A DNA stretch of 18,104 nucleotides from Candidatus Woesearchaeota archaeon (GCA_964573185.1 CAZNIQ010000014.1:1-18104), one strand, 5' to 3'; numbered from the stretch's first letter, positions 327 to 9,055 are shown. The notes: a model not told the origin generated them from the letters alone. Numbers and translations are program-made.

Positions 327-1979
327 ATGGTTAATATTGATTTGGTTAAGAAAATGTTTAAAGCTAATACCAAAGTTAAAAAGCTTTTACCAAAAGATAT
401 ATTAGAAACCTACGAAAATTTGTATTTCAGATTTTTAGATTTGAGGGAAAAAGGAAAAATACCTTTCCACGGAAATTACTTATCAGATTTTGAATTAGCC
501 AAAACAATTTACAAAAACAAATATTTCCTGAAAACATTGGATGGAAGATCTATTGAAGAACATCCAGAAGACGTATTTTTAAGAGTAGCTGCTTTTATAG
601 CTTCAGTTGAAGAAAATCCTGAACGCTGGGCAAATAAATTCTATGAGATTATGTATGAAGGGTACTTCTTACCCGGTGGTAGGGTTTTAGCAGGAGCTGG
701 AGATTTATATAGATTGAAAACACCTGTTAATTGTTTTGTCATTCCAATCCCCGATGATTCTATTGAAGGAATTTTTGATGCAGCAAAATGGGCTGCCAGA
801 ACATATTCTTATGGTGGTGGTGTTGGAATAGATATCTCTTGTTTAAGACCTAAAGGTTCTGTGGTTCACAATGCAGCTTTATTTTCTACTGGTGCTGTTT
901 CCTTTATGGAATTATATTCTTTAGTTACTGGTTTAATAGGGCAAGAAGGAAGAAGAGGGGCTTTAATGTTAACTATAGATGTAAAACACCCGGATATTTT
1001 CTATTTCATCAGATCGAAATCCGATGTTGGATACTTTGTAAAATTGGCTTTGGAGGAGTTAAAATGGAGATTACCAAATTTGGATGAAGAGACGTTTGAG
1101 ATAATTAAAAGAGTACTAATAAACAATTTCCAAGTAAGGTTTGCAAATATATCTGTTAAGTTTACTGACGAGTTCTTTCAAGCGGTAGAAGAAGAGAATA
1201 AGTATGGAAGAAACAAAATTTTGGTTTATAAAAAGAAATACAAAGGAATTATAAGGAATTATTATCAAAAGAAAAATGAATTTTCTTACGGAATGCCTTC
1301 AAAAGATATATCGAAATATGAGTTAATTAAGGTTTTTGACAATATTGATCAATTAAATGAGTGGTTAGAGGAGAATTATAGAGTTAGAATAAGAGAAGAT
1401 GATCTTAAAGATCCTTATAAAAGAGATATCTATGGCGATTATGTAATAGAGTTAAAAGATGAAGATTACGATTTGGCTATAAGATATTCTGGTGATTTTC
1501 TTTTATATTGGGCTTCAGAAGTAGTGGGTGAGATAAGAAGATTAGTAAAAGCTAGAGATATCTGGAACTTGTTTGTAGCTTCAAATTACTATTCTGCAGA
1601 ACCCGGAGCTATATACTGGAGTAGACATAAGAAATACTCTCCTTCAGATTATATTGGGGTTCCGATTATGACAACAAATCCCTGTGCAGAAGTTCCATTA
1701 CAACCCGGAGGAGCATGTAATTTGGGTTCAATTAATCTAGCAAGATTTGTTAAAAATCCATTTACAGATAAAGCTGAAATAGATTGGGAAAAATTAAGGG
1801 AAGTAGTACATATCGCTGTAAGATTTTTGGACAATGTTGTTGACTTCCAGATATATCTTAATCCTTTAGATTTTCAGAAGAAAGCTGCTAGAGATACAAG
1901 AAGAATTGGCTTAGGTATAATGGGATTAGCTGATATGTTAGTTCAGTTAGGATTAGAATATGATTCTGATGAAGCTTGA
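327..1979 (+). CDS. nrdJ: Class II (adenosylcobalamin-type) ribonucleotide reductase, N-terminal and catalytic segment. It ends at an in-frame TGA.
   Basis: 550 aa. It carries the active-site loop TTNPCAEVPLQPGGACNLGSINL (thiyl-radical Cys loop) and GGGVGIDISCLRPKGS. The reading frame continues after a single TGA at 1977-1979. Confidence 0.85.
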   Translation: MVNIDLVKKMFKANTKVKKLLPKDILETYENLYFRFLDLREKGKIPFHGNYLSDFELAKTIYKNKYFLKTLDGRSIEEHPEDVFLRVAAFIASVEENPERWANKFYEIMYEGYFLPGGRVLAGAGDLYRLKTPVNCFVIPIPDDSIEGIFDAAKWAARTYSYGGGVGIDISCLRPKGSVVHNAALFSTGAVSFMELYSLVTGLIGQEGRRGALMLTIDVKHPDIFYFIRSKSDVGYFVKLALEELKWRLPNLDEETFEIIKRVLINNFQVRFANISVKFTDEFFQAVEEENKYGRNKILVYKKKYKGIIRNYYQKKNEFSYGMPSKDISKYELIKVFDNIDQLNEWLEENYRVRIREDDLKDPYKRDIYGDYVIELKDEDYDLAIRYSGDFLLYWASEVVGEIRRLVKARDIWNLFVASNYYSAEPGAIYWSRHKKYSPSDYIGVPIMTTNPCAEVPLQPGGACNLGSINLARFVKNPFTDKAEIDWEKLREVVHIAVRFLDNVVDFQIYLNPLDFQKKAARDTRRIGLGIMGLADMLVQLGLEYDSDEA

Positions 1980-1997
1980 AAAGTCATTGAAAAGGTT

Positions 1998-2858
1998 ATG
2001 CGGTTTATTGCTAATGAAGCTTATAAAGCATCAGCTTTACTAGCTAAAGAAAAAGGTACTTTTCCATTATGGGATTATAATAAATATTCTAGAAACCCGT
2101 TCTTTAAAGAAGCTTTAGACGACGATACAAAAGAGTTGATAAAAGAGAATGGATTAAGAAATGTTGCAATATTATCTGTAGCCCCTACAGGTACGATATC
2201 AAATATAGTTAAGGCTGCGGAACTAAACGGTAAAAATTATATAGGAGTTTCAAACGGAATAGAACCTATTTTTGCTTTATATTATATTAGAAGGTCGGAA
2301 TCCTTAGAAAAGAAATTCTTCAAGGTATTCCATCCAATAGCAAGATATTATTTAGATTTACATGGTTTATATGATAAAGCACAGGAAGCTTCTGATGAGG
2401 AATTAAAAAAGATTTTACCTAAATATTTCTGGAGGACAGCTCACGTTATAAATCCATATAAAAGAGTAGAAATGCAAGCAGTAGTACAAAAATATATTGA
2501 TCACAGCATTTCTTCAACTATAAACCTTCCGATGGATATTGAACCTGAAACTATGTCTGAAATCTACTTATATGCTTGGAAGAAAGGACTAAAAGGTGTT
2601 ACTGTTTATAGAGAAGGTTCTAGGTTCCCAATAATTATTATTGATTCTAAGAAGAAAGAATTTCAGGAGTTTGCGAATAAAAAGTTCATTTTGAGGACAA
2701 AAGATGGAAAGGAGTATAAAGTGACTGGCGACACTGTTATATATATTAAAGGAAGGCTTACAACTATATATCATGCTCTTAAGAAGAATTTAATTAGAAA
2801 GGAGAATGAAAATGTGTTATATTATGATGATACCGATTTGATTGTCTATCCTAAGTAA
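1998..2858 (+). CDS. nrdJ: Class II ribonucleotide reductase, central and C-terminal barrel segment, in the same frame as 327..1979.
   Basis: 286 aa. RFIANEAYKASALLAKEKGTFP, SVAPTGTIS, HSISSTINLP and KGVTVYREGSR are typical RNR large-subunit blocks. 1998 and 327 are in the same codon phase. The first ATG lies 6 codons after the TGA. Confidence 0.8.
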   Translation: MRFIANEAYKASALLAKEKGTFPLWDYNKYSRNPFFKEALDDDTKELIKENGLRNVAILSVAPTGTISNIVKAAELNGKNYIGVSNGIEPIFALYYIRRSESLEKKFFKVFHPIARYYLDLHGLYDKAQEASDEELKKILPKYFWRTAHVINPYKRVEMQAVVQKYIDHSISSTINLPMDIEPETMSEIYLYAWKKGLKGVTVYREGSRFPIIIIDSKKKEFQEFANKKFILRTKDGKEYKVTGDTVIYIKGRLTTIYHALKKNLIRKENENVLYYDDTDLIVYPK

Positions 2859-2891
2859 CCTTTAAATTTTCTTAATTTTACTTACATTTCT

Positions 2892-3050
2892 ATGCATTTT
2901 AAGGTTAGGTTGGAGGAGCCAAAAAAGGAAGTTTTAATTGCTGAAGGACAACCAATGATGCAATGTCCTGTTTGTGGTAACTACTCCGTAGTGAATCAGG
3001 GTGGTTGTTATACTTGCTTAGTTTGTGGCTGGTCTAAATGTGATACATAA
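2892..3050 (+). CDS. Cys-rich zinc-ribbon-like C-terminal tail of class II RNR, encoded as a separate 52-aa ORF in the same frame.
   Basis: My own translation is MHFKVRLEEPKKEVLIAEGQPMMQCPVCGNYSVVNQGGCYTCLVCGWSKCDT*. The CxxC-x10-CxxCxxCxxxxC pattern matches the redox-shuttle tail of archaeal and Thermotoga-type class II RNRs. It is in phase with 327 and 1998 and is separated from the previous piece by one TAA (2856-2858). It is below the ORF-track size cut-off. Confidence 0.65.
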   Translation: MHFKVRLEEPKKEVLIAEGQPMMQCPVCGNYSVVNQGGCYTCLVCGWSKCDT

Positions 3051-3331
3051 ATTTCAAGCATACATTTAATTAGTTTCTTAACTTTTTCCGGATCCTTTAA
3101 GCAGACTTCAAAATATTTTCCTTTCTTTCTCAATTCAACTATATTTACTTTTTCCAATTCCTTGATATGTCTATAAACTACAGATACATCTTTGTTCAAC
3201 AGTTTTGAGAAATCTGCAATGCAATATTTATTTTCTTGAGCTTTCAGGAGTTCCAGAATTATCTTAAGTCTAGATTCATTGGATAGTACTTTTGCAATCT
3301 CTTGCAAAGCTTTTATATACTTTTCCTCCAT
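3008..3331 (-). CDS. ArsR/SmtB-family winged-helix transcriptional regulator.
   Basis: 107 aa. IAKVLSNESRLKIILELL...YCIADFSKLLNKDVSVVYRHIKELEKVNIVELRKKGKYFEVCL is the ArsR-type HTH plus wing. It is divergent from the PDO gene with only 9 nt between the two start codons. Confidence 0.8.
   Translation of the reverse strand: MEEKYIKALQEIAKVLSNESRLKIILELLKAQENKYCIADFSKLLNKDVSVVYRHIKELEKVNIVELRKKGKYFEVCLKDPEKVKKLIKCMLEIYVSHLDQPQTKQV
3311..3319 (+). promoter_or_regulatory. TATA box candidate for the PDO-TrxR operon, embedded in the ArsR coding sequence.
   Basis: TTTTATATA is centred 26 nt upstream of the ATG at 3341. The mirror candidate for the ArsR gene, CTTTAAAAG (3360-3368), lies inside the PDO coding sequence. 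Confidence 0.4.
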
Positions 3332-3340
3332 GGTATCTTA

Positions 3341-4036
3341 ATGGTATTAGATGAGCACACTTTAAAAGAATTAAAGGAAATTTTTGAGAAGAACCTAAAG
3401 GATCCGGTTGAAGTAGTTTTAATTACTGATAAAGAAAAGAATAGGGAACCTTCCGAGGTAGCCGAAGAACTGGCAAGGGATATTATGTCTATAACGGATA
3501 AAGTAAAATTTGAGATTGTTGATGCAAATGATGAAAAAGGAAAGGGATATTTAGATAAATATGATTTAAGATTGGATAAATGGGGTAAAAGATATGGTCC
3601 TCTCTTCTTCTTTAAAGAAAAACCGAATATAATTTATTATGGCTTGCCGGCTAGAGAAGAATTTCCAGTATTTATTGAGGATTTGATTATGTTGTCTAAC
3701 AAAAAGGTTGACATGATGTTGAGCGTTGCAATGAAAATAAAGAAGGTGAACATTCCTATAGATATCTATATCTTTGTTACACCAACTTGTCCGTATTGTC
3801 CTTATATGACATTAAGTTCCCATAGATTCGCCTATTTGAATGATAAAATAAGAGGTATAATGATCGAGGCAACAGAATTTCCAGAGTTCGCTGATGCTTA
3901 CCAAGTTATGGCTGTTCCGAAAAATGTTATTATTGATAGAAGAACCGGTAAGGAACTATTGATTTGGGAAGGTATGGTACCAGAAAATGCTTTTGCAGAG
4001 CAAATTGAACACGCTTTAGAACACGCAAAGGAATAA
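3341..4036 (+). CDS. Protein disulfide oxidoreductase (glutaredoxin-like, two thioredoxin-fold units, single CPYC site).
   Basis: VTPTCPYCP...FPEFADAYQVMAVPK is the C-terminal active unit of archaeal PDO. The N-terminal unit aligns by eye but lacks CxxC. The start is moved to ATG 3341 (MVLDEHTLKEL...). The ORF-track start at 3302 would overlap the ArsR start and adds a non-conserved peptide. Confidence 0.8.
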   Translation: MVLDEHTLKELKEIFEKNLKDPVEVVLITDKEKNREPSEVAEELARDIMSITDKVKFEIVDANDEKGKGYLDKYDLRLDKWGKRYGPLFFFKEKPNIIYYGLPAREEFPVFIEDLIMLSNKKVDMMLSVAMKIKKVNIPIDIYIFVTPTCPYCPYMTLSSHRFAYLNDKIRGIMIEATEFPEFADAYQVMAVPKNVIIDRRTGKELLIWEGMVPENAFAEQIEHALEHAKE

Positions 4037-4037
4037 A

Positions 4038-4994
4038 ATGTTCAAGCTATCTTTAAGAAAAGAAGAACAATTGGATAAGGATTGGGAAGTAATAATAATA
4101 GGAGGAGGACCTGCTGGTTTAACAGCTGCTTTATATTTAGGAAGATATAAAGTAAAAACTTTGGTAATAACAAAAGAAGTTGGTGGCTTGCTAAATGAAG
4201 CTTCTATAATAGAAGATTATCCTGGTATAAAAAGAATAAAAGCAGTAGAACTTGCCAAGGCTTTTGAAGAGCATGCCAAGGAATGGGGGGCAAAAATATT
4301 AATAGATGAGGTTATAGATGTTAAGAAAGAAGGGGATAAATTTATCGTAAAAACAAGAGATAAGGAATTCACAGCGGAAGCAATTATATTAGCCACCGGT
4401 TCTAGAAGAAGGAAACTAGGGGTTCCCGGAGAGAACTTACCGGGGGTATCATATTGTGCAGAATGTGATGCTCCTTTATTTAAAGATAAAGTTGTTGCAG
4501 TTGTTGGTGGTGGAAACACAGCTTTTCACGATGCAATTGTGATTTCAGGTTATGCAAAGAAAGTTTATATTATTCATAGGAGAGATAAATTTAGGGCAGA
4601 TCCTGTTTTAGTTGAAGAAGCTAAAAAGAAGGGAATTGAATTTATTTTAAACAAGGTTGTTGTAGAGATAAAAGGTGAAGGAAAAGTAGAAAAAGTTATA
4701 TTAAAAGATACTAAAACGGGAGAGATCTCTGAATTAGAAGTTCAAGGTTTATTTGTTGCAATAGGATTAGAACCTAATAATGAATTGGCAAAGAAATTAG
4801 GAGTGGAATTGGATACTGATGGTAGAATAAAGGTAGATCCTTGTATGAGAACAAATATTGAAGGAGTTTTTGCTGCTGGTGACATAACAACGGGATCATG
4901 TAAATTTATGCAAATTATTACTTCCGCCGCAGAAGGTGCTATTGCTGCTAAATCAGCTTATGAATATTTATTAAAGAAAAGGTACAAACAATAA
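4038..4994 (+). CDS. trxB: Thioredoxin (disulfide) reductase.
   Basis: The FAD-binding motif is VIIIGGGPAGLTAALY. The redox-active site is CAECDA. The NAD(P)H-binding site is VAVVGGGNTA...IHRRDKFRA. The C-terminal block is GVFAAGD. It starts 1 nt after the PDO stop. Confidence 0.9.
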   Translation: MFKLSLRKEEQLDKDWEVIIIGGGPAGLTAALYLGRYKVKTLVITKEVGGLLNEASIIEDYPGIKRIKAVELAKAFEEHAKEWGAKILIDEVIDVKKEGDKFIVKTRDKEFTAEAIILATGSRRRKLGVPGENLPGVSYCAECDAPLFKDKVVAVVGGGNTAFHDAIVISGYAKKVYIIHRRDKFRADPVLVEEAKKKGIEFILNKVVVEIKGEGKVEKVILKDTKTGEISELEVQGLFVAIGLEPNNELAKKLGVELDTDGRIKVDPCMRTNIEGVFAAGDITTGSCKFMQIITSAAEGAIAAKSAYEYLLKKRYKQ

Positions 4995-5000
4995 AATTTT

Positions 5001-5074
<74 letters not shown>

Positions 5075-5115
5075 AAGTAAGATTATTATTTTTCTTACCT
5101 TTAAAAAGTTTAGTA

Positions 5116-7341
5116 ATGGTTAGAGTAGTTGGGATAGAGCCTAGAGAATACCAAAAGAGAATTTTGGAAACTTGTAAAAGAAAAAACACATTGGTAATTC
5201 TTCCAACAGGTACTGGAAAAACAATTATTGCTCTGATGCTTACTGCAGAAAGACTAAATTTATACCCAGATTCAAAGGTAATTTTTCTTGCCCCCACAAA
5301 ACCTTTAGTTAATCAACATAAGAACACATTTTCAAAACATCTAGAAGATATAGATAAAACTAGGTTAGTTGTAATTACAGGAGATATAAGACCTGAAAGA
5401 AGAAAAGAATTATACAAATTTGGAAAGATAATTTTTGTGACACCACAGACACTTCAAAACGATTTATTGATGAAAAGAGTTTCTTTAGAAAATGTTTCTT
5501 TAATCATTTTTGACGAAGCACATAGAGCTGTAGGAAAATATCCTTATGTTTATATAGCAAGGGAATATTTTAAACAATCAAGATTTCCGAGAGTGTTAGG
5601 ATTAACAGCAAGTCCGGGACACGATTTGGAAAGAATAAAAGAGGTAATTCGTAATTTAGGAATAGAAGCTATTGAAATTAGAGTAGGGACAGAACCTGAT
5701 ATAAAACCTTATATAAAGCCAATAAAAATAAAAAGAATTGAAGTAGAGTTTCACGGAAAATTAAAAGAAATACAGGAATTGTTAAAAAACGCTTTGGAAA
5801 TAAGATATCAACAGTTAAAAGAATTAGGCTATGTGACAAGAAAACTAAAGGGGAAGAAGGAAATTTTAGAAAAGCAAAAGGAATTACAACAATTATTGGC
5901 AAATGATCCTGAGAATGAGAAGATAAAGAAATCCATAAGTTTGCTAGCAGAAGTTATGAAATTGGATCATGCTCTAGAAGTTTTTGAAACGCAAACGCTA
6001 TATACTTTTATAAAGTATTGTGAATCTTTGTTTGAAAAAGCACAAAATACTAGAATAATTGCTTTAAAGAACGTCACAGAGGATCCAAGGTTTAGAAAAG
6101 CTTATGTTCTAGCAAAAGAAGCTATTAGAGAAACTGAACATCCAAAATTATTGAAATTAGTAGAATTAGTAAAAGAACTTGTAAAGAAAAATAAAAAGAT
6201 AATTATTTTTGCACAGATAAGATATACAGTAGATAGAATAATAGAATTTTTAAGAAAAGAAAATATAGCTTGTGAAAAATTTGTAGGAAAGAAGGAAATG
6301 TCTAGGGATAAGCAATTAGAGATACTTAGAAGATTTTCCTTAGGGGAATTTAATGTTTTAGTTGCAACATCAATTGCTGAGGAAGGATTGGATATTCCTA
6401 AAGTTGATACTGTAATATTTTACGAGCCAGTACCTTCTGAAATAAGATATATTCAGAGAAGAGGGAGAACAGGAAGATCTGATATTGGAGAGGTTATAAT
6501 TCTAATAACAAAGAATTCTAGAGATGAAATTTACTATTGGGCTTCTGTGATGAGAGAAAGAAAAATGATTAAAACTATTAAATGGTTAAAGGAAGTACTA
6601 AAGAAAGAAAAAATAATACCCGAAGAGAAGAAGGAAGAAAAACCTATGTTAACTTTAGATAAATTTGCTTTCGTTGAGCACAAAATAGAGAAACCAGAAC
6701 CAGCATTCAAAGGTTTAAGGATTGTTGCAGATTATAGAGAAAAAGCTTCGGGTGTCGTACAAGAACTAACGAGATATGGAATTCTTGTTGAGTTAAAGAA
6801 CCTACCTGTAGGAGATTATTTAGTAGGAGATATTTTAATAGAAAGAAAAAGTAAATTAGATTTTGTGAATTCAATTATAGATGGAAGACTTTGGGAACAA
6901 CTTGATAAGCTAAAAGAATATAATTCTATTTTGATCTTAGAAGGAGAGGAAGATTTGTATTCAATAAGAAACGTTCATCCGAATCTTATAAGGGGTGTTC
7001 TATTAAAAATTGCAGCAGATTACAAAATCCCAATAATCTTTACCAAGGATTTTAGAGATACTGCTTTATTTATCAAGCTTCTAGCCGAAAAGCAAAAAAG
7101 AGAAAATAAGGAAATTATTTTAAAGAAGAAGAGCAAAAGTTTAACCGAAATACAAATAGATATTCTTACAAGTTTTCCGGGTATTGGTAAAAAATTGGCT
7201 TTAGAATTATTGAAGAAGTTTAAAAGCCTAAAAAACATATTCAATGCTTCTATTGTAGAACTTTCTAAAGTTATAGGTGAAACTCGTGCAAGAAAATTTA
7301 AAGAGATATTGGAAAAAGAATTTAAAGCTGAAGAATTATGA
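5116..7341 (+). CDS. hef: Hef-type helicase/nuclease (SF2 helicase fused to an XPF/Mus81-family nuclease and HhH2).
   Basis: Helicase motifs are LPTGTGKT, FDEAH, TASPG and YIQRRGRTGR. The C-terminal nuclease carries VGDYLV...IERKSKLDFVNSIIDGRLWEQ (the ERK motif). The terminal HhH is FPGIGKKLALELLKKF. Confidence 0.9.
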   Translation: MVRVVGIEPREYQKRILETCKRKNTLVILPTGTGKTIIALMLTAERLNLYPDSKVIFLAPTKPLVNQHKNTFSKHLEDIDKTRLVVITGDIRPERRKELYKFGKIIFVTPQTLQNDLLMKRVSLENVSLIIFDEAHRAVGKYPYVYIAREYFKQSRFPRVLGLTASPGHDLERIKEVIRNLGIEAIEIRVGTEPDIKPYIKPIKIKRIEVEFHGKLKEIQELLKNALEIRYQQLKELGYVTRKLKGKKEILEKQKELQQLLANDPENEKIKKSISLLAEVMKLDHALEVFETQTLYTFIKYCESLFEKAQNTRIIALKNVTEDPRFRKAYVLAKEAIRETEHPKLLKLVELVKELVKKNKKIIIFAQIRYTVDRIIEFLRKENIACEKFVGKKEMSRDKQLEILRRFSLGEFNVLVATSIAEEGLDIPKVDTVIFYEPVPSEIRYIQRRGRTGRSDIGEVIILITKNSRDEIYYWASVMRERKMIKTIKWLKEVLKKEKIIPEEKKEEKPMLTLDKFAFVEHKIEKPEPAFKGLRIVADYREKASGVVQELTRYGILVELKNLPVGDYLVGDILIERKSKLDFVNSIIDGRLWEQLDKLKEYNSILILEGEEDLYSIRNVHPNLIRGVLLKIAADYKIPIIFTKDFRDTALFIKLLAEKQKRENKEIILKKKSKSLTEIQIDILTSFPGIGKKLALELLKKFKSLKNIFNASIVELSKVIGETRARKFKEILEKEFKAEEL

Positions 7342-7348
7342 TTTTCTA

Positions 7349-7546
7349 ATGAAAGCTAAGGAATTAAGACAGAAGTCTACTGAAGAACTTATACAATTAC
7401 TTAACCAATTAAGAGAAAAACTCATGCAATTGAAAATGAGGAAAGAGGCGGGAATGCCTTTAGAAAATCCAATGGAAATTAGAAATACAAAAAGGGATAT
7501 TGCAAGGATATTAACTATTTTAAGAGAAAGAGGAATTAAATTATGA
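7349..7546 (+). CDS. rpl29: 50S ribosomal protein L29 (uL29).
   Basis: MKAKELRQKSTEELIQLLNQLREKLMQLKMRKEAG is the typical L29 N-terminus. The ORF-track start at 7277 would overlap the Hef 3' end and add 24 unrelated residues. Confidence 0.85.
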   Translation: MKAKELRQKSTEELIQLLNQLREKLMQLKMRKEAGMPLENPMEIRNTKRDIARILTILRERGIKL

Positions 7547-7854
7547 AAAAGAAGAAATTAATAACTGGAGGTTTACCCGAGTTAGATACTTTTGAACAAG
7601 TAGTAAAGGAAACTCAAAGAATAAAGGTTAGAACTGAAACTAGATCTTATGGAAAAGTTGTTACAATTATAGAAGGAATAGACGAGGCTTTAGATCCAAA
7701 AAGTATTTTAAAGGAATTAAAAAGAAGATTGGGCTGTGGGGGAACATATGATAAAGATTCTAAGGCGATAGTACTTCAAGGGGACCATAGGAATAAGATT
7801 AAGAAGCTTTTAGTTGACCTTGGCTTCTCGGAATCCTCTATATCCATCGAGTAG
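7543..7854 (+). CDS. Translation initiation factor aSUI1 (eIF1 homologue).
   Basis: IKVRTETRSYGKVVTIIEGI...LKELKRRLGCGGT...IVLQGDHR is the SUI1 fold signature. Its start overlaps the L29 stop in an ATGA arrangement. Confidence 0.85.
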   Translation: MKKKKLITGGLPELDTFEQVVKETQRIKVRTETRSYGKVVTIIEGIDEALDPKSILKELKRRLGCGGTYDKDSKAIVLQGDHRNKIKKLLVDLGFSESSISIE

Positions 7855-8125
7855 AGTTAAAGAATTAATAAAGCACGAGCTAATAGGTTTATGGGTAGAG
7901 GTTATAGATTCAAAAAATAAGGATTATATTGGGATTTATGGAGAAGTTGTTGATGAAACTAAAAATACATTAAGGATTAGATCACCGGATGGAAAGATAA
8001 GAACAGTTATTAAAGAATTCTGTACTTTTTTATTTTATTTTGATGACGGTTTTATTGTAAAAGTTGATGGAAAGCTAATTAAAGGGAGACCGTGGGAAAG
8101 GATAAAGAAAAGAATAAAGAAATGA
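7814..8125 (+). CDS. rnp1: RNase P protein component 1 (Rpp29/Pop4 homologue).
   Basis: ELIGLWVEVIDSKNKDYIGIYGEVVDETKNTLRIRSPDGKIRTVIKEFCTFLF...VDGKLIKGRPWERIKK matches the Rpp29 Sm-like barrel pattern. It also sits in the conserved position between SUI1 and S17. The start is uncertain because the ORF overlaps SUI1 by 41 nt. Confidence 0.75.
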   Translation: MTLASRNPLYPSSRVKELIKHELIGLWVEVIDSKNKDYIGIYGEVVDETKNTLRIRSPDGKIRTVIKEFCTFLFYFDDGFIVKVDGKLIKGRPWERIKKRIKK

Positions 8126-8173
8126 TCAGAGACCCTCTTAGTCATCATTTTCAGCCCGAAAAACGCTCATCAC
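8126..8173 (-). ncRNA. C/D box sRNA (2'-O-methylation guide). Coordinates cover box C through box D.
   Basis: The minus strand reads GUGAUGA-GCGUUUUUCGGG-CUGA-AA-AUGAUGA-CUAAGAGGGUCU-CUGA. All four boxes (C, D', C', D) are canonical and both spacers are exactly 12 nt. An AT-rich TATA-like run (8191-8208) lies about 25 nt upstream on that strand. Confidence 0.8.
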
Positions 8174-8653: not shown

Positions 8654-9055
8654 ATGAAGGCTGTAAAAGCAAAGGTTACAAGGGCTTTACCTGTAGGGGC
8701 ATATTTAACGGTAGCTGACAACTCTGGTGCTAAAGAAGTACAAATTATTGGTGTGATAGGTTATAAAGGTGTTAGAAGAAGATTGCCAGCAGCTGGTGTA
8801 GGTGATATGGTAGTTGTTACTGTTAAAAAAGGAAAATTAGAGTTATTAGGACAAGTAATGAAAGCTGTTATAATAAGACAAAGAAAGGAATATAGAAGAG
8901 CTAATGGGATAAGAGTAAAATTTGAAGATAATGCATGTGTAATAGTAAAGGATGATTTAGGAACTCCAAAAGGAACTATGATAAAAGGTCCCGTTGCTAA
9001 AGAAGCAGCAGAAAGATGGCCTGAAATAGCAAAGATAGCTTCAATTATTGTTTAA
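8654..9055 (+). CDS. rpl14: 50S ribosomal protein L14 (uL14).
   Basis: [17 protein letters not shown]...[13 protein letters not shown]...[28 protein letters not shown] is the L14 signature. Confidence 0.9.

Follow-up and report, generated by a model that had tools for sequence, protein, structure and literature searches.

The locus examined here is a class II (adenosylcobalamin-dependent) ribonucleotide reductase (RNR) locus at positions 327 to 3050 of an 18,104-nt contig, deposited at NCBI in a metagenome-assembled genome (MAG) of a “Candidatus Woesearchaeota” archaeon (GCA_964573185.1, contig CAZNIQ010000014.1). The whole contig is called the window below, and coordinates are counted from its first letter. 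In the original prediction, made from the sequence by itself, the locus was seen as a single enzyme broken into three in-phase pieces by two nonsense codons. Our analysis supports part of that picture: the first stop, a TGA, is a genuine in-frame nonsense codon, whereas the second, a TAA, is the native end of the gene. The locus is better described as a normal archaeal nrdJa/nrdJb pair whose neighbors, encoding an ArsR-type regulator, a thioredoxin-fold protein, and a thioredoxin reductase, probably make up its reductant system. Its NrdJb would have been reduced to a 52-amino-acid (aa) protein that keeps the six-Cys finger, and superimposed on the nrdJa of this strain lineage would be one very recent nonsense mutation, TTA to TGA, inside a helix of the barrel.

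Reading frame and identity of the gene

A single frame opens at ATG 327 and meets two stop codons, TGA at 1977 to 1979 (...YDSDEA-stop-KVIEKVMRF...) and TAA at 2856 to 2858 (...LIVYPK-stop-PLNFLNFTYISMHFKV...). An ATG in the same codon phase as the first follows each of them, at 1998 (6 codons past the TGA) and at 2892 (11 codons past the TAA). The latter opens a third open reading frame (ORF), 2892 to 3050, which encodes 52 aa and ends in CPVCG-x9-CYTCLVCGWSKCDT (C-terminal stretch, CPVCGNYSVVNQGGCYTCLVCGWSKCDT). The frame, both stops, the nearby ATGs, their common phase, the small ORF, and its 43-nt overlap (window 3008 to 3050) with the 3' end of an ArsR-type gene are all present in the sequence as originally described.

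Pfam places the all-alpha RNR domain (PF00317) and profile positions 162 to 307 of the barrel (PF02867) in piece 1, upstream of the TGA, and the remaining barrel, profile positions 316 to 523, in piece 2. The RNR homology is thus genuine and carries on through the TGA without a break, and conserved RNR blocks do lie on either side of it, as had been noted. The NrdJ equivalog model TIGR02504 (cutoff, 399.95 bits) gives 516.8 bits for an intact orthologue (P0001, see below) and 335.1 bits (model positions 2 to 375) and 168.7 bits (383 to 601) for the two window pieces; the ranges are contiguous, and each piece alone falls under the cutoff because of the stop. These matches bear out the earlier assignment, and by homology the gene is taken to encode a class II RNR, NrdJ. 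Residues N451, P452, C453, and E455 of the TTNPCAEVPL motif are invariant in 30 homologues, and its Cys is presumably, by homology, the thiyl-radical Cys. The nearest named NrdJ relatives come from Aenigmatarchaeota and other DPANN-type or thermophilic archaea, and the relatives found belong to archaea, Calditrichota, Marinimicrobia, Ignavibacteriota, and others.

The second stop is the native end of nrdJa

A search with the read-through translation identified P0001 (83% identity) and P0002 (75%) as the closest full-length relatives. Both proteins are intact and 842 aa long, and their termini (...IQIYPE and ...VEVYVL) align exactly with the ...LIVYPK-TAA of the window. Most of the top 120 matches are 825 to 850 aa long and share this end point, without a cysteine tail; in the family, lengths of 830 to 845 aa predominate. 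Because the intact orthologues stop at the same residue, the TAA at 2856 to 2858 is the native nrdJ stop, and the second “break” is no lesion. Counted through the TGA, nrdJa runs from 327 to 2858 and has 843 codons. Neither the window NrdJa nor its orthologues have a Cys within the last ~80 residues, and in the AlphaFold model of the orthologue the protein closes with a C-terminal beta-rich domain (residues 778 to 840; predicted local distance difference test [pLDDT] score, about 91). Comparison with the sister loci, proposed together with the original prediction, accordingly gives different outcomes at the two stops: a sense codon, TTA, in both sister loci (L001 and L003) at the first, and a shared native end at the second.

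The 52-aa ORF is a separate gene and probably a minimal NrdJb

On the contig that encodes P0001 (L001; GCA_054017035.1), a 51-aa ORF, MEFKLSLEKGNEEIIAQGQPLMKCPVCGNYSVVNEGGCYICLVCGWSKCDV, is situated 31 nt past nrdJ. It begins 2,560 nt from the nrdJ start, i.e., in another frame, and is followed, as in the window, by an ArsR gene (43-nt overlap), a thioredoxin-fold gene, and a thioredoxin-reductase gene. On the contig that encodes P0002 (L003), a 59-aa small ORF stands upstream of nrdJ, with a 14-nt gap. Since the orthologue is out of frame in one sister and upstream of nrdJ in the other, the in-phase position of the third ORF in the window is a coincidence, and readthrough of the TAA cannot be the ancestral way of joining the tail to the enzyme. 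The small ORF is therefore not a piece of one broken enzyme, as first supposed, but a separate conserved gene. The accompanying suggestion that the Cys-rich tail could act in trans agrees with the known NrdJa+NrdJb enzymes, in which it does so (PMC4520616, PMC5704485).

The 52-aa protein is 73% identical to its L001 orthologue (dN, the nonsynonymous divergence, 0.17; dS, the synonymous divergence, 1.46; with 52 codons, these values have little power). Against a hidden Markov model (HMM) built from 52 full-length NrdJb-like ORFs, it matches only positions 165 to 209 of 210 (E value, 7e-8), and NCBIfam models of full-length B12-RNR align with it at the extreme C terminus (e.g., NF006417, positions 726 to 758 of 759; E value, 7.6e-6). 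Translated in all frames, the window, L001, L003, and L004 (a second contig of the window species, see below) gave no TSCPD-like match to the 52-ORF HMM. We conclude from these matches that the protein would be an NrdJb cut down to a minimum, without the IscU-like/TSCPD domain, and it is likely that it functions as such by itself. The IscU-like/TSCPD domain, part of the 150- to 300-aa NrdJb of relatives, would thus have been lost in the window lineage, and the remaining six-Cys finger would supply the active site with reducing equivalents taken from a redoxin, as it does in the characterized split enzyme.

In a word-index search, the 52-aa protein retrieved the L001 orthologue only, the index being insensitive to so short a query. 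When 1.84 billion representative proteins were searched exhaustively with a profile, 151 matches were obtained, many of them proteins of 35 to 125 aa with the motif at the C terminus; among them, a 66-aa version (L090) lies directly at or overlapping the 3' end of an nrdJa. The idea that all small six-Cys proteins are RNR linked was rejected, as two of them (L089 and L088) have no nrdJ nearby. The former (50 aa) is found among phage-like genes, beside a GH108 lysozyme-family gene, and the latter (41 aa) adjoins an ORF read as a VRR-NUC-like nuclease; both follow the pattern C-x2-C-x10-C-x2-C-x2-C-x4-C. The N-terminal NrdJb motif (MIKL...I.EVK) is not significant in the window mini-NrdJb, where 36 of 200 shuffled sequences did as well; in the 75-aa ORF of L035 only 2 of 200 did, which is suggestive only.

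Separate NrdJb genes are the rule among related nrdJ loci

Eighty related nrdJ loci from species-representative genomes were scanned for the six-Cys terminal motif. A separate six-Cys ORF of 150 to 300 aa lies just downstream on the same strand in 59 of them, frequently overlapping nrdJ by 4 nt, whereas the tail is fused to nrdJ in 5. Two loci have a separate six-Cys ORF of less than 100 aa (L035, 75 aa; L082, at most 96 aa), and no motif was found in the remaining 14, mostly on contigs that end too early. In two representative long ORFs, the zinc finger is preceded by a TSCPD domain (PF12637; E values, 5e-9 and 3.5e-8). By its architecture, this pattern corresponds to the known NrdJa+NrdJb split. 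NrdJb is reduced to a zinc finger of 50 to 75 aa in at least three related species and a few others.

Separate NrdJb-like ORFs of about 200 to 260 aa were seen past nrdJ in Aenigmatarchaeota, Thermoproteota, Iainarchaeia, Micrarchaeota, Woesearchaeota, and Heimdallarchaeota among the archaea, and likewise in Calditrichota, Marinimicrobia, Ignavibacteriota, and Bacteroidota; a 4-nt overlap, ATGA, is typical of them. Three other Woesearchaeota (L033, L062, and L067) have an NrdJ with a fused six-Cys tail and, directly downstream, an extra ORF of 38 to 50 aa that looks like a second, free-standing finger. One Nanobdellota MAG (JBNJDG01) contains two nrdJ copies on separate contigs (L041 and L042), with no six-Cys ORF in the ~4.9 kb downstream of either. 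The NrdJa clade also differs from Thermotoga maritima NrdJ in an insertion of ~110 aa (residues about 295 to 400, window about 1200 to 1530). In a HMMER comparison with the T. maritima protein, residues 135 to 255 and 401 to 767 align and the stretch between them does not; AlphaFold predicts it to be mostly beta strands (298 to 303, 331 to 337, and 372 to 408).

The premature TGA is derived, real, and an ordinary stop

In the codon alignment, codon 551 is TGA in the window and TTA (Leu) in both L001 and L003. Because both orthologues carry TTA, the TGA is derived, through a single T-to-G change at 1978 in which Leu551 was lost, which is the origin first proposed for it. Across the family, position 551 is variable (Leu, Gln, Met, Ile, or Val) and is never Cys.

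As the TGA differs from the sense codon by a single base in metagenome-assembled contigs, we considered that the organism might really have TTA at this position. The exact 52-aa sequence led to three further contigs of the same species (L004, L005, and L006). L004 (ENA ERZ27262635, contig k141_18920; 32,584 nt) is 99.87% identical to the window, with 9 single nucleotide polymorphisms (SNPs) in 7,050 nt, and has the same TGA, identical flanking sequence, and the same 550 + 286 + 52 arrangement. Only the window and L004 cover the site: L006 (Logan) ends short of it, and L005 (JGI) begins at window position 1982, 3 nt past the TGA, with no JGI contig on the left side. That L005 starts here may be due to low coverage, or to a polymorphism at the nonsense site or close by that broke the assembly graph. 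Two DNA scans of JGI metagenomes, one with Ns at codons 551 and 552 and one just upstream, gave no match to a further contig over the TGA site, and an exact look-up of the 550-aa product found no record. A 180-aa segment spanning the site with the Leu restored had piece 2 as its only near-identical match, a weak negative because the matches listed appeared to be limited to short proteins. Since a second separately deposited assembly with nine other differences has the same TGA, it is unlikely that both consensus sequences are wrong at this one base (the read sets are possibly not independent), and we take the TGA to be real. The base-call error considered at the outset, or any other sequencing or assembly artefact, is thus highly improbable.

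A recoded TGA, read as a sense codon or as selenocysteine, has nothing in its favor beyond the in-frame TGA itself. TGA ends four other ORFs in the window, including those of Hef and RNase P p29, in which the Pfam domains finish just ahead of it, and no other window gene is interrupted. An Rfam scan of the window detected a tRNA-Ala only, with no selenocysteine insertion sequence (SECIS) or other recoding element, and homologues never have Cys at position 551. Because TGA terminates four other window genes, the genetic code is standard and TGA is an ordinary stop; an alternative code and selenocysteine were both rejected as effectively refuted by the four TGA-terminated ORFs and the missing SECIS.

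The TGA allele is probably a recent loss of function

No decay of nrdJa is visible on either side of the TGA. Of 197 columns without variation among 30 homologues, the window departs from only one, with Y319F, and keeps 196; the intact sister P0001 has 5 departures. Piece 2 retains all 63 family-invariant columns and, with P0002 as the outgroup, has 16 lineage-specific changes versus 31 in P0001. The dN/dS ratios for each piece, a check suggested with the original prediction, are low relative to L001 (piece 1, 0.049; piece 2, 0.039). With dS saturated at values from 1.3 to above 4, however, they have no power for a recent event; the invariant-column and relative-rate tests were used instead. 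The density of SNPs between the window and L004 does not differ significantly between nrdJ and its flanks: nrdJ, with 36% of the length, has 6 of the 9 (binomial P, about 0.06), and one codon accounts for two of the SNPs. Because there is neither decay nor an excess of changes downstream of the stop, the lesion is either very young or still compatible with function.

We favor the first of these as somewhat the likelier account: the TGA allele would be null or strongly hypomorphic, either a pseudogene in the making or a loss-of-function variant that is still segregating, and an evolved enzyme of three subunits is less likely. Neither nrdJa half is active alone, as follows from established knowledge of RNR structure; here, piece 1 has the finger loop and the TTNPCAE cysteine, whereas the PTGTISN loop is in piece 2, together with the last strands of the barrel. 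Any activity that remains would stem from UGA readthrough at a low level or from weak reinitiation at Met558. In DPANN-type symbionts, it would be no surprise for a biosynthetic gene to be lost.

Several points weigh against this reading. (i) The analysis covers an 18-kb contig only, and a further RNR elsewhere in the genome would lie outside its view; an intact allele of this species was not found in the protein collection. (ii) Among four strain haplotypes of piece 2, not sorted into carriers and noncarriers of the TGA, there are 6 synonymous and 2 nonsynonymous differences, which indicates purifying selection in the recent past of the species. (iii) The TGA is found in two haplotypes with 9 differences; it must therefore have lasted for some time without being lethal at once, and such persistence fits retained function as well as dispensability. 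(iv) The function assigned to the mini-NrdJb comes from homology and gene linkage only.

Function could be retained if the nonsense codon were leaky, with UGA551 read at a low rate by a near-cognate tRNA, e.g., tRNA-Trp; enough full-length NrdJa might then be made for a slow-growing symbiont, and the gene would remain under selection. UGA is the leakiest stop codon in bacteria, the gene is undecayed on both sides of it, and the TGA is common to two diverged haplotypes. Because position 551 varies in the family, a substitution would probably be tolerated and a read-through product would probably be active. However, no readthrough signal is evident at the TGA (no conserved stop, downstream structure, or Rfam element), archaeal readthrough rates are unmeasured for such a context, and the absence of decay is equally expected of a very young mutation. 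We therefore regard leaky termination as unlikely. Programmed readthrough, raised in the original prediction, is unsupported, as relatives have a sense codon at this position, and the reinitiation proposed alongside it would be weak at 18 nt.

Alternatively, the enzyme might consist of three polypeptides, with NrdJa-N (550 aa) and NrdJa-C (286 aa, from ATG 1998) associating noncovalently and served by the 52-aa NrdJb. The in-frame ATG 18 nt past the stop and the intact invariant residues of both halves (196 of 197; Y319F) are in keeping with this, and NrdA of Aeromonas phage Aeh1 is a functional precedent for an RNR split in the barrel (PMC3045599). However, the split is absent in both sister species, and Met558 is an ancestral conserved residue (EKVM in relatives) and no newly evolved start; the 18 nt between the TGA and ATG 1998 are all ancestral coding sequence, without an inserted element. 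AlphaFold modeling of the orthologue (pLDDT, 88.9) places residue 551 four residues into a 29-residue helix (548 to 576) that follows the RIGLG strand. The cut is therefore predicted to fall inside the helix, and a start at Met558 would drop 7 residues, 551 to 557. Reinitiation in Haloferax volcanii is 40 to 60% efficient at a spacing of 13 to 14 nt and about zero at 22 to 23 nt (PMC10666635); a spacing of 18 nt lies between these values, which weighs against an evolved split. By eye, ATG 1998 has no well-spaced Shine-Dalgarno-like motif, only GG at -4/-3. Finally, no new interaction tails are present at the TGA break, whereas in phage Aeh1 NrdA, the only characterized barrel-split RNR, extra tails are needed for activity and large-subunit assembly (PMC3045599). 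A three-polypeptide enzyme is accordingly quite doubtful, and a null or strongly hypomorphic allele remains our preferred reading.

Gene neighborhood

The features of the locus and of related loci are listed in Table 1. The thioredoxin-fold and thioredoxin-reductase-like genes occupy the same positions in L001 and L004, and their products are the obvious candidate electron donors of the RNR. The convergent overlap between the small gene and the ArsR-type gene recurs in the sister genome, so that the last cysteines of the finger and the C terminus of the regulator share the same DNA on opposite strands. The TTTAAAT of the spacer is a possible archaeal TATA box, which would give a leaderless transcript. 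In a blastn comparison of the window with L001, the aligned blocks end at 2674 and restart at 2935, leaving the spacer outside them. Past the reductase gene, the window contains a tRNA-Ala, the Hef helicase-nuclease, and then L29, aSUI1, RNase P p29, S17, and L14, as well as a THUMP-SPOUT gene; Hef and the ribosomal-protein cluster confirm the archaeal origin of the window.

Table 1. Features of the window and of related loci
Locus	Feature	Position	Strand	Remarks
Window	nrdJa codons 1-550	327..1976	+	All-alpha domain, first half of ten-stranded barrel, finger loop TTNPCAEVPL
Window	Premature TGA, codon 551	1977..1979	+	Leu (TTA) in both closest orthologues; T-to-G at 1978
Window	nrdJa codons 552-843	1980..2855	+	Second barrel half including PTGTISN loop, C-terminal beta-rich domain; first ATG at 1998 (conserved Met558)
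Window	Native nrdJa stop TAA, no lesion	2856..2858	+	Orthologues end at aligned position
Window	AT-rich 33-nt spacer between nrdJa and small gene	2859..2891	+	TTTAAAT ~27 nt 5' of ATG 2892
Window	Putative mini-nrdJb, 52 aa, six-Cys zinc-finger/redox tail alone	2892..3050	+	Cys C25, C28, C39, C42, C45, C50
Window	ArsR-type winged-helix regulator, convergent	3008..3331	-	Pfam HTH_5 and HVO_A0114
Window	Thioredoxin-fold protein with CPYC motif (glutaredoxin-like or protein-disulfide-oxidoreductase-like)	3341..4036	+	Pfam Thioredoxin_3
Window	Thioredoxin-reductase-like flavoprotein	4038..4994	+	Pfam Pyr_redox_2, E value 4e-57
Window	tRNA-Ala(TGC)	5000..5075	-	Between thioredoxin reductase gene and Hef; ORFs 5052-5297 and 5116-7341 there
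L001	Overlap of small gene and ArsR-type gene, 43 nt, convergent	8674..8716		Sister genome
L007	NrdJb-like ORF	7457..8062
L008	NrdJb-like ORF	7472..8098
L011	NrdJb-like ORF	7526..8167
L018	NrdJb-like ORF	7481..8122
L073	NrdJb-like ORF	7472..8173
L033	Extra downstream finger ORF	7698..7814		CPNCGGPVEKE...GTCFSCK.E.CGWGIC
L062	Extra downstream finger ORF	7726..7842		Same motif
L067	Extra downstream finger ORF	7684..7836		Same motif
L089	Small six-Cys ORF, no nearby nrdJ	1838..1990
L088	Small six-Cys ORF, no nearby nrdJ	749..874

Comparison with known systems

The nonsense codon alone is of little weight, such alleles being routine unless shown to be functional. More general is the distribution of NrdJb: across a large NrdJ clade with many archaeal lineages (Aenigmatarchaeota, Thermoproteota, Micrarchaeota, and Woesearchaeota), it is as a rule encoded separately, whereas the 2015 literature placed the split in Proteobacteria only. 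The locus also advises caution in annotation, since the small gene is missed by ORF-length cutoffs and in-phase neighbors can mimic a broken gene. What the IscU-like domain does in the tails of class II RNRs is still to be settled (PMC9669993), and no physiological reductant has yet been identified for NrdJ with a zinc-finger tail (PMC5704485). With a 52-aa finger, a thioredoxin-fold protein, and a thioredoxin reductase encoded side by side, the locus offers a natural minimal system for both problems. If the 52-aa protein is functional, the IscU-like domain would be dispensable for re-reduction. If the RNR did work as three polypeptides, it would be the first case of a cellular RNR with its catalytic barrel divided by a simple nonsense mutation, a gene fission under way, served by the smallest known free-standing redox-shuttle subunit.

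The closest known system is NrdJa+NrdJb. NrdJb combines an IscU-like domain with a zinc finger, and NrdJa has an extra folded C-terminal domain (Burnim 2022, PMC9669993); the cysteine-rich domain, with six invariant cysteines, is separately encoded in the NrdJa+b subclass (Loderer 2017, PMC5704485). In Pseudomonas aeruginosa, NrdJb (229 aa) performs thiol-disulfide exchange and is essential in vivo (Crona 2015, PMC4520616); a 1:1 NrdJa-NrdJb complex and a need for NrdJb with physiological reductants have been shown only for this species (PMC4520616). As in the P. aeruginosa system, the catalytic subunit described here has an extra folded domain at its C terminus and no terminal cysteines, and the six-Cys zinc-finger tail is on a separate adjacent gene (window, L001, L003, and L004). 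The NrdJb proteins of relatives, about 200 to 260 aa from the first start codon, resemble the P. aeruginosa protein in length, and the two that were scanned have the IscU-like/TSCPD domain and the zinc finger. There are also differences. (i) The window NrdJb has 52 aa and is without the IscU-like/TSCPD domain. (ii) The host is an archaeon, while NrdJa+b was described in 2015 for Proteobacteria only (PMC4520616). (iii) NrdJa of the window lineage has 842 aa, compared with 734 in the P. aeruginosa system. (iv) In one sister species, the small gene is upstream of nrdJa. The likeness to the NrdJa+NrdJb split is one of architecture.

Fused zinc-finger-only NrdJ enzymes (Burnim 2022, PMC9669993) likewise have a finger without an IscU-like domain, with four Zn-ligand Cys residues and a terminal pair; however, their finger is covalently attached to the catalytic chain, whereas that of the window is a free-standing microprotein. 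Another parallel is NrdA-a/NrdA-b of Aeromonas phage Aeh1 (Crona 2010, PMC3045599), in which the chain is also cut in the barrel and essential elements are on two ORFs. That split arose by insertion of a homing-endonuclease gene and came with new essential tails (PMC3045599), whereas the window has a point nonsense mutation and an 18-nt gap with nothing inserted. Unlike a functional RNR gene in pieces, moreover, the split is not conserved in relatives (TTA in L001 and L003). The window allele resembles instead the ordinary nonsense alleles or nascent pseudogenes of reduced DPANN-type symbionts, having one derived stop in an otherwise intact gene shared by close strains; it is set apart from them only in that nrdJ is normally essential and the partner genes are intact. 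The locus is therefore best filed as a mini-NrdJb variant of the known split system with an ordinary nonsense allele on its nrdJa.

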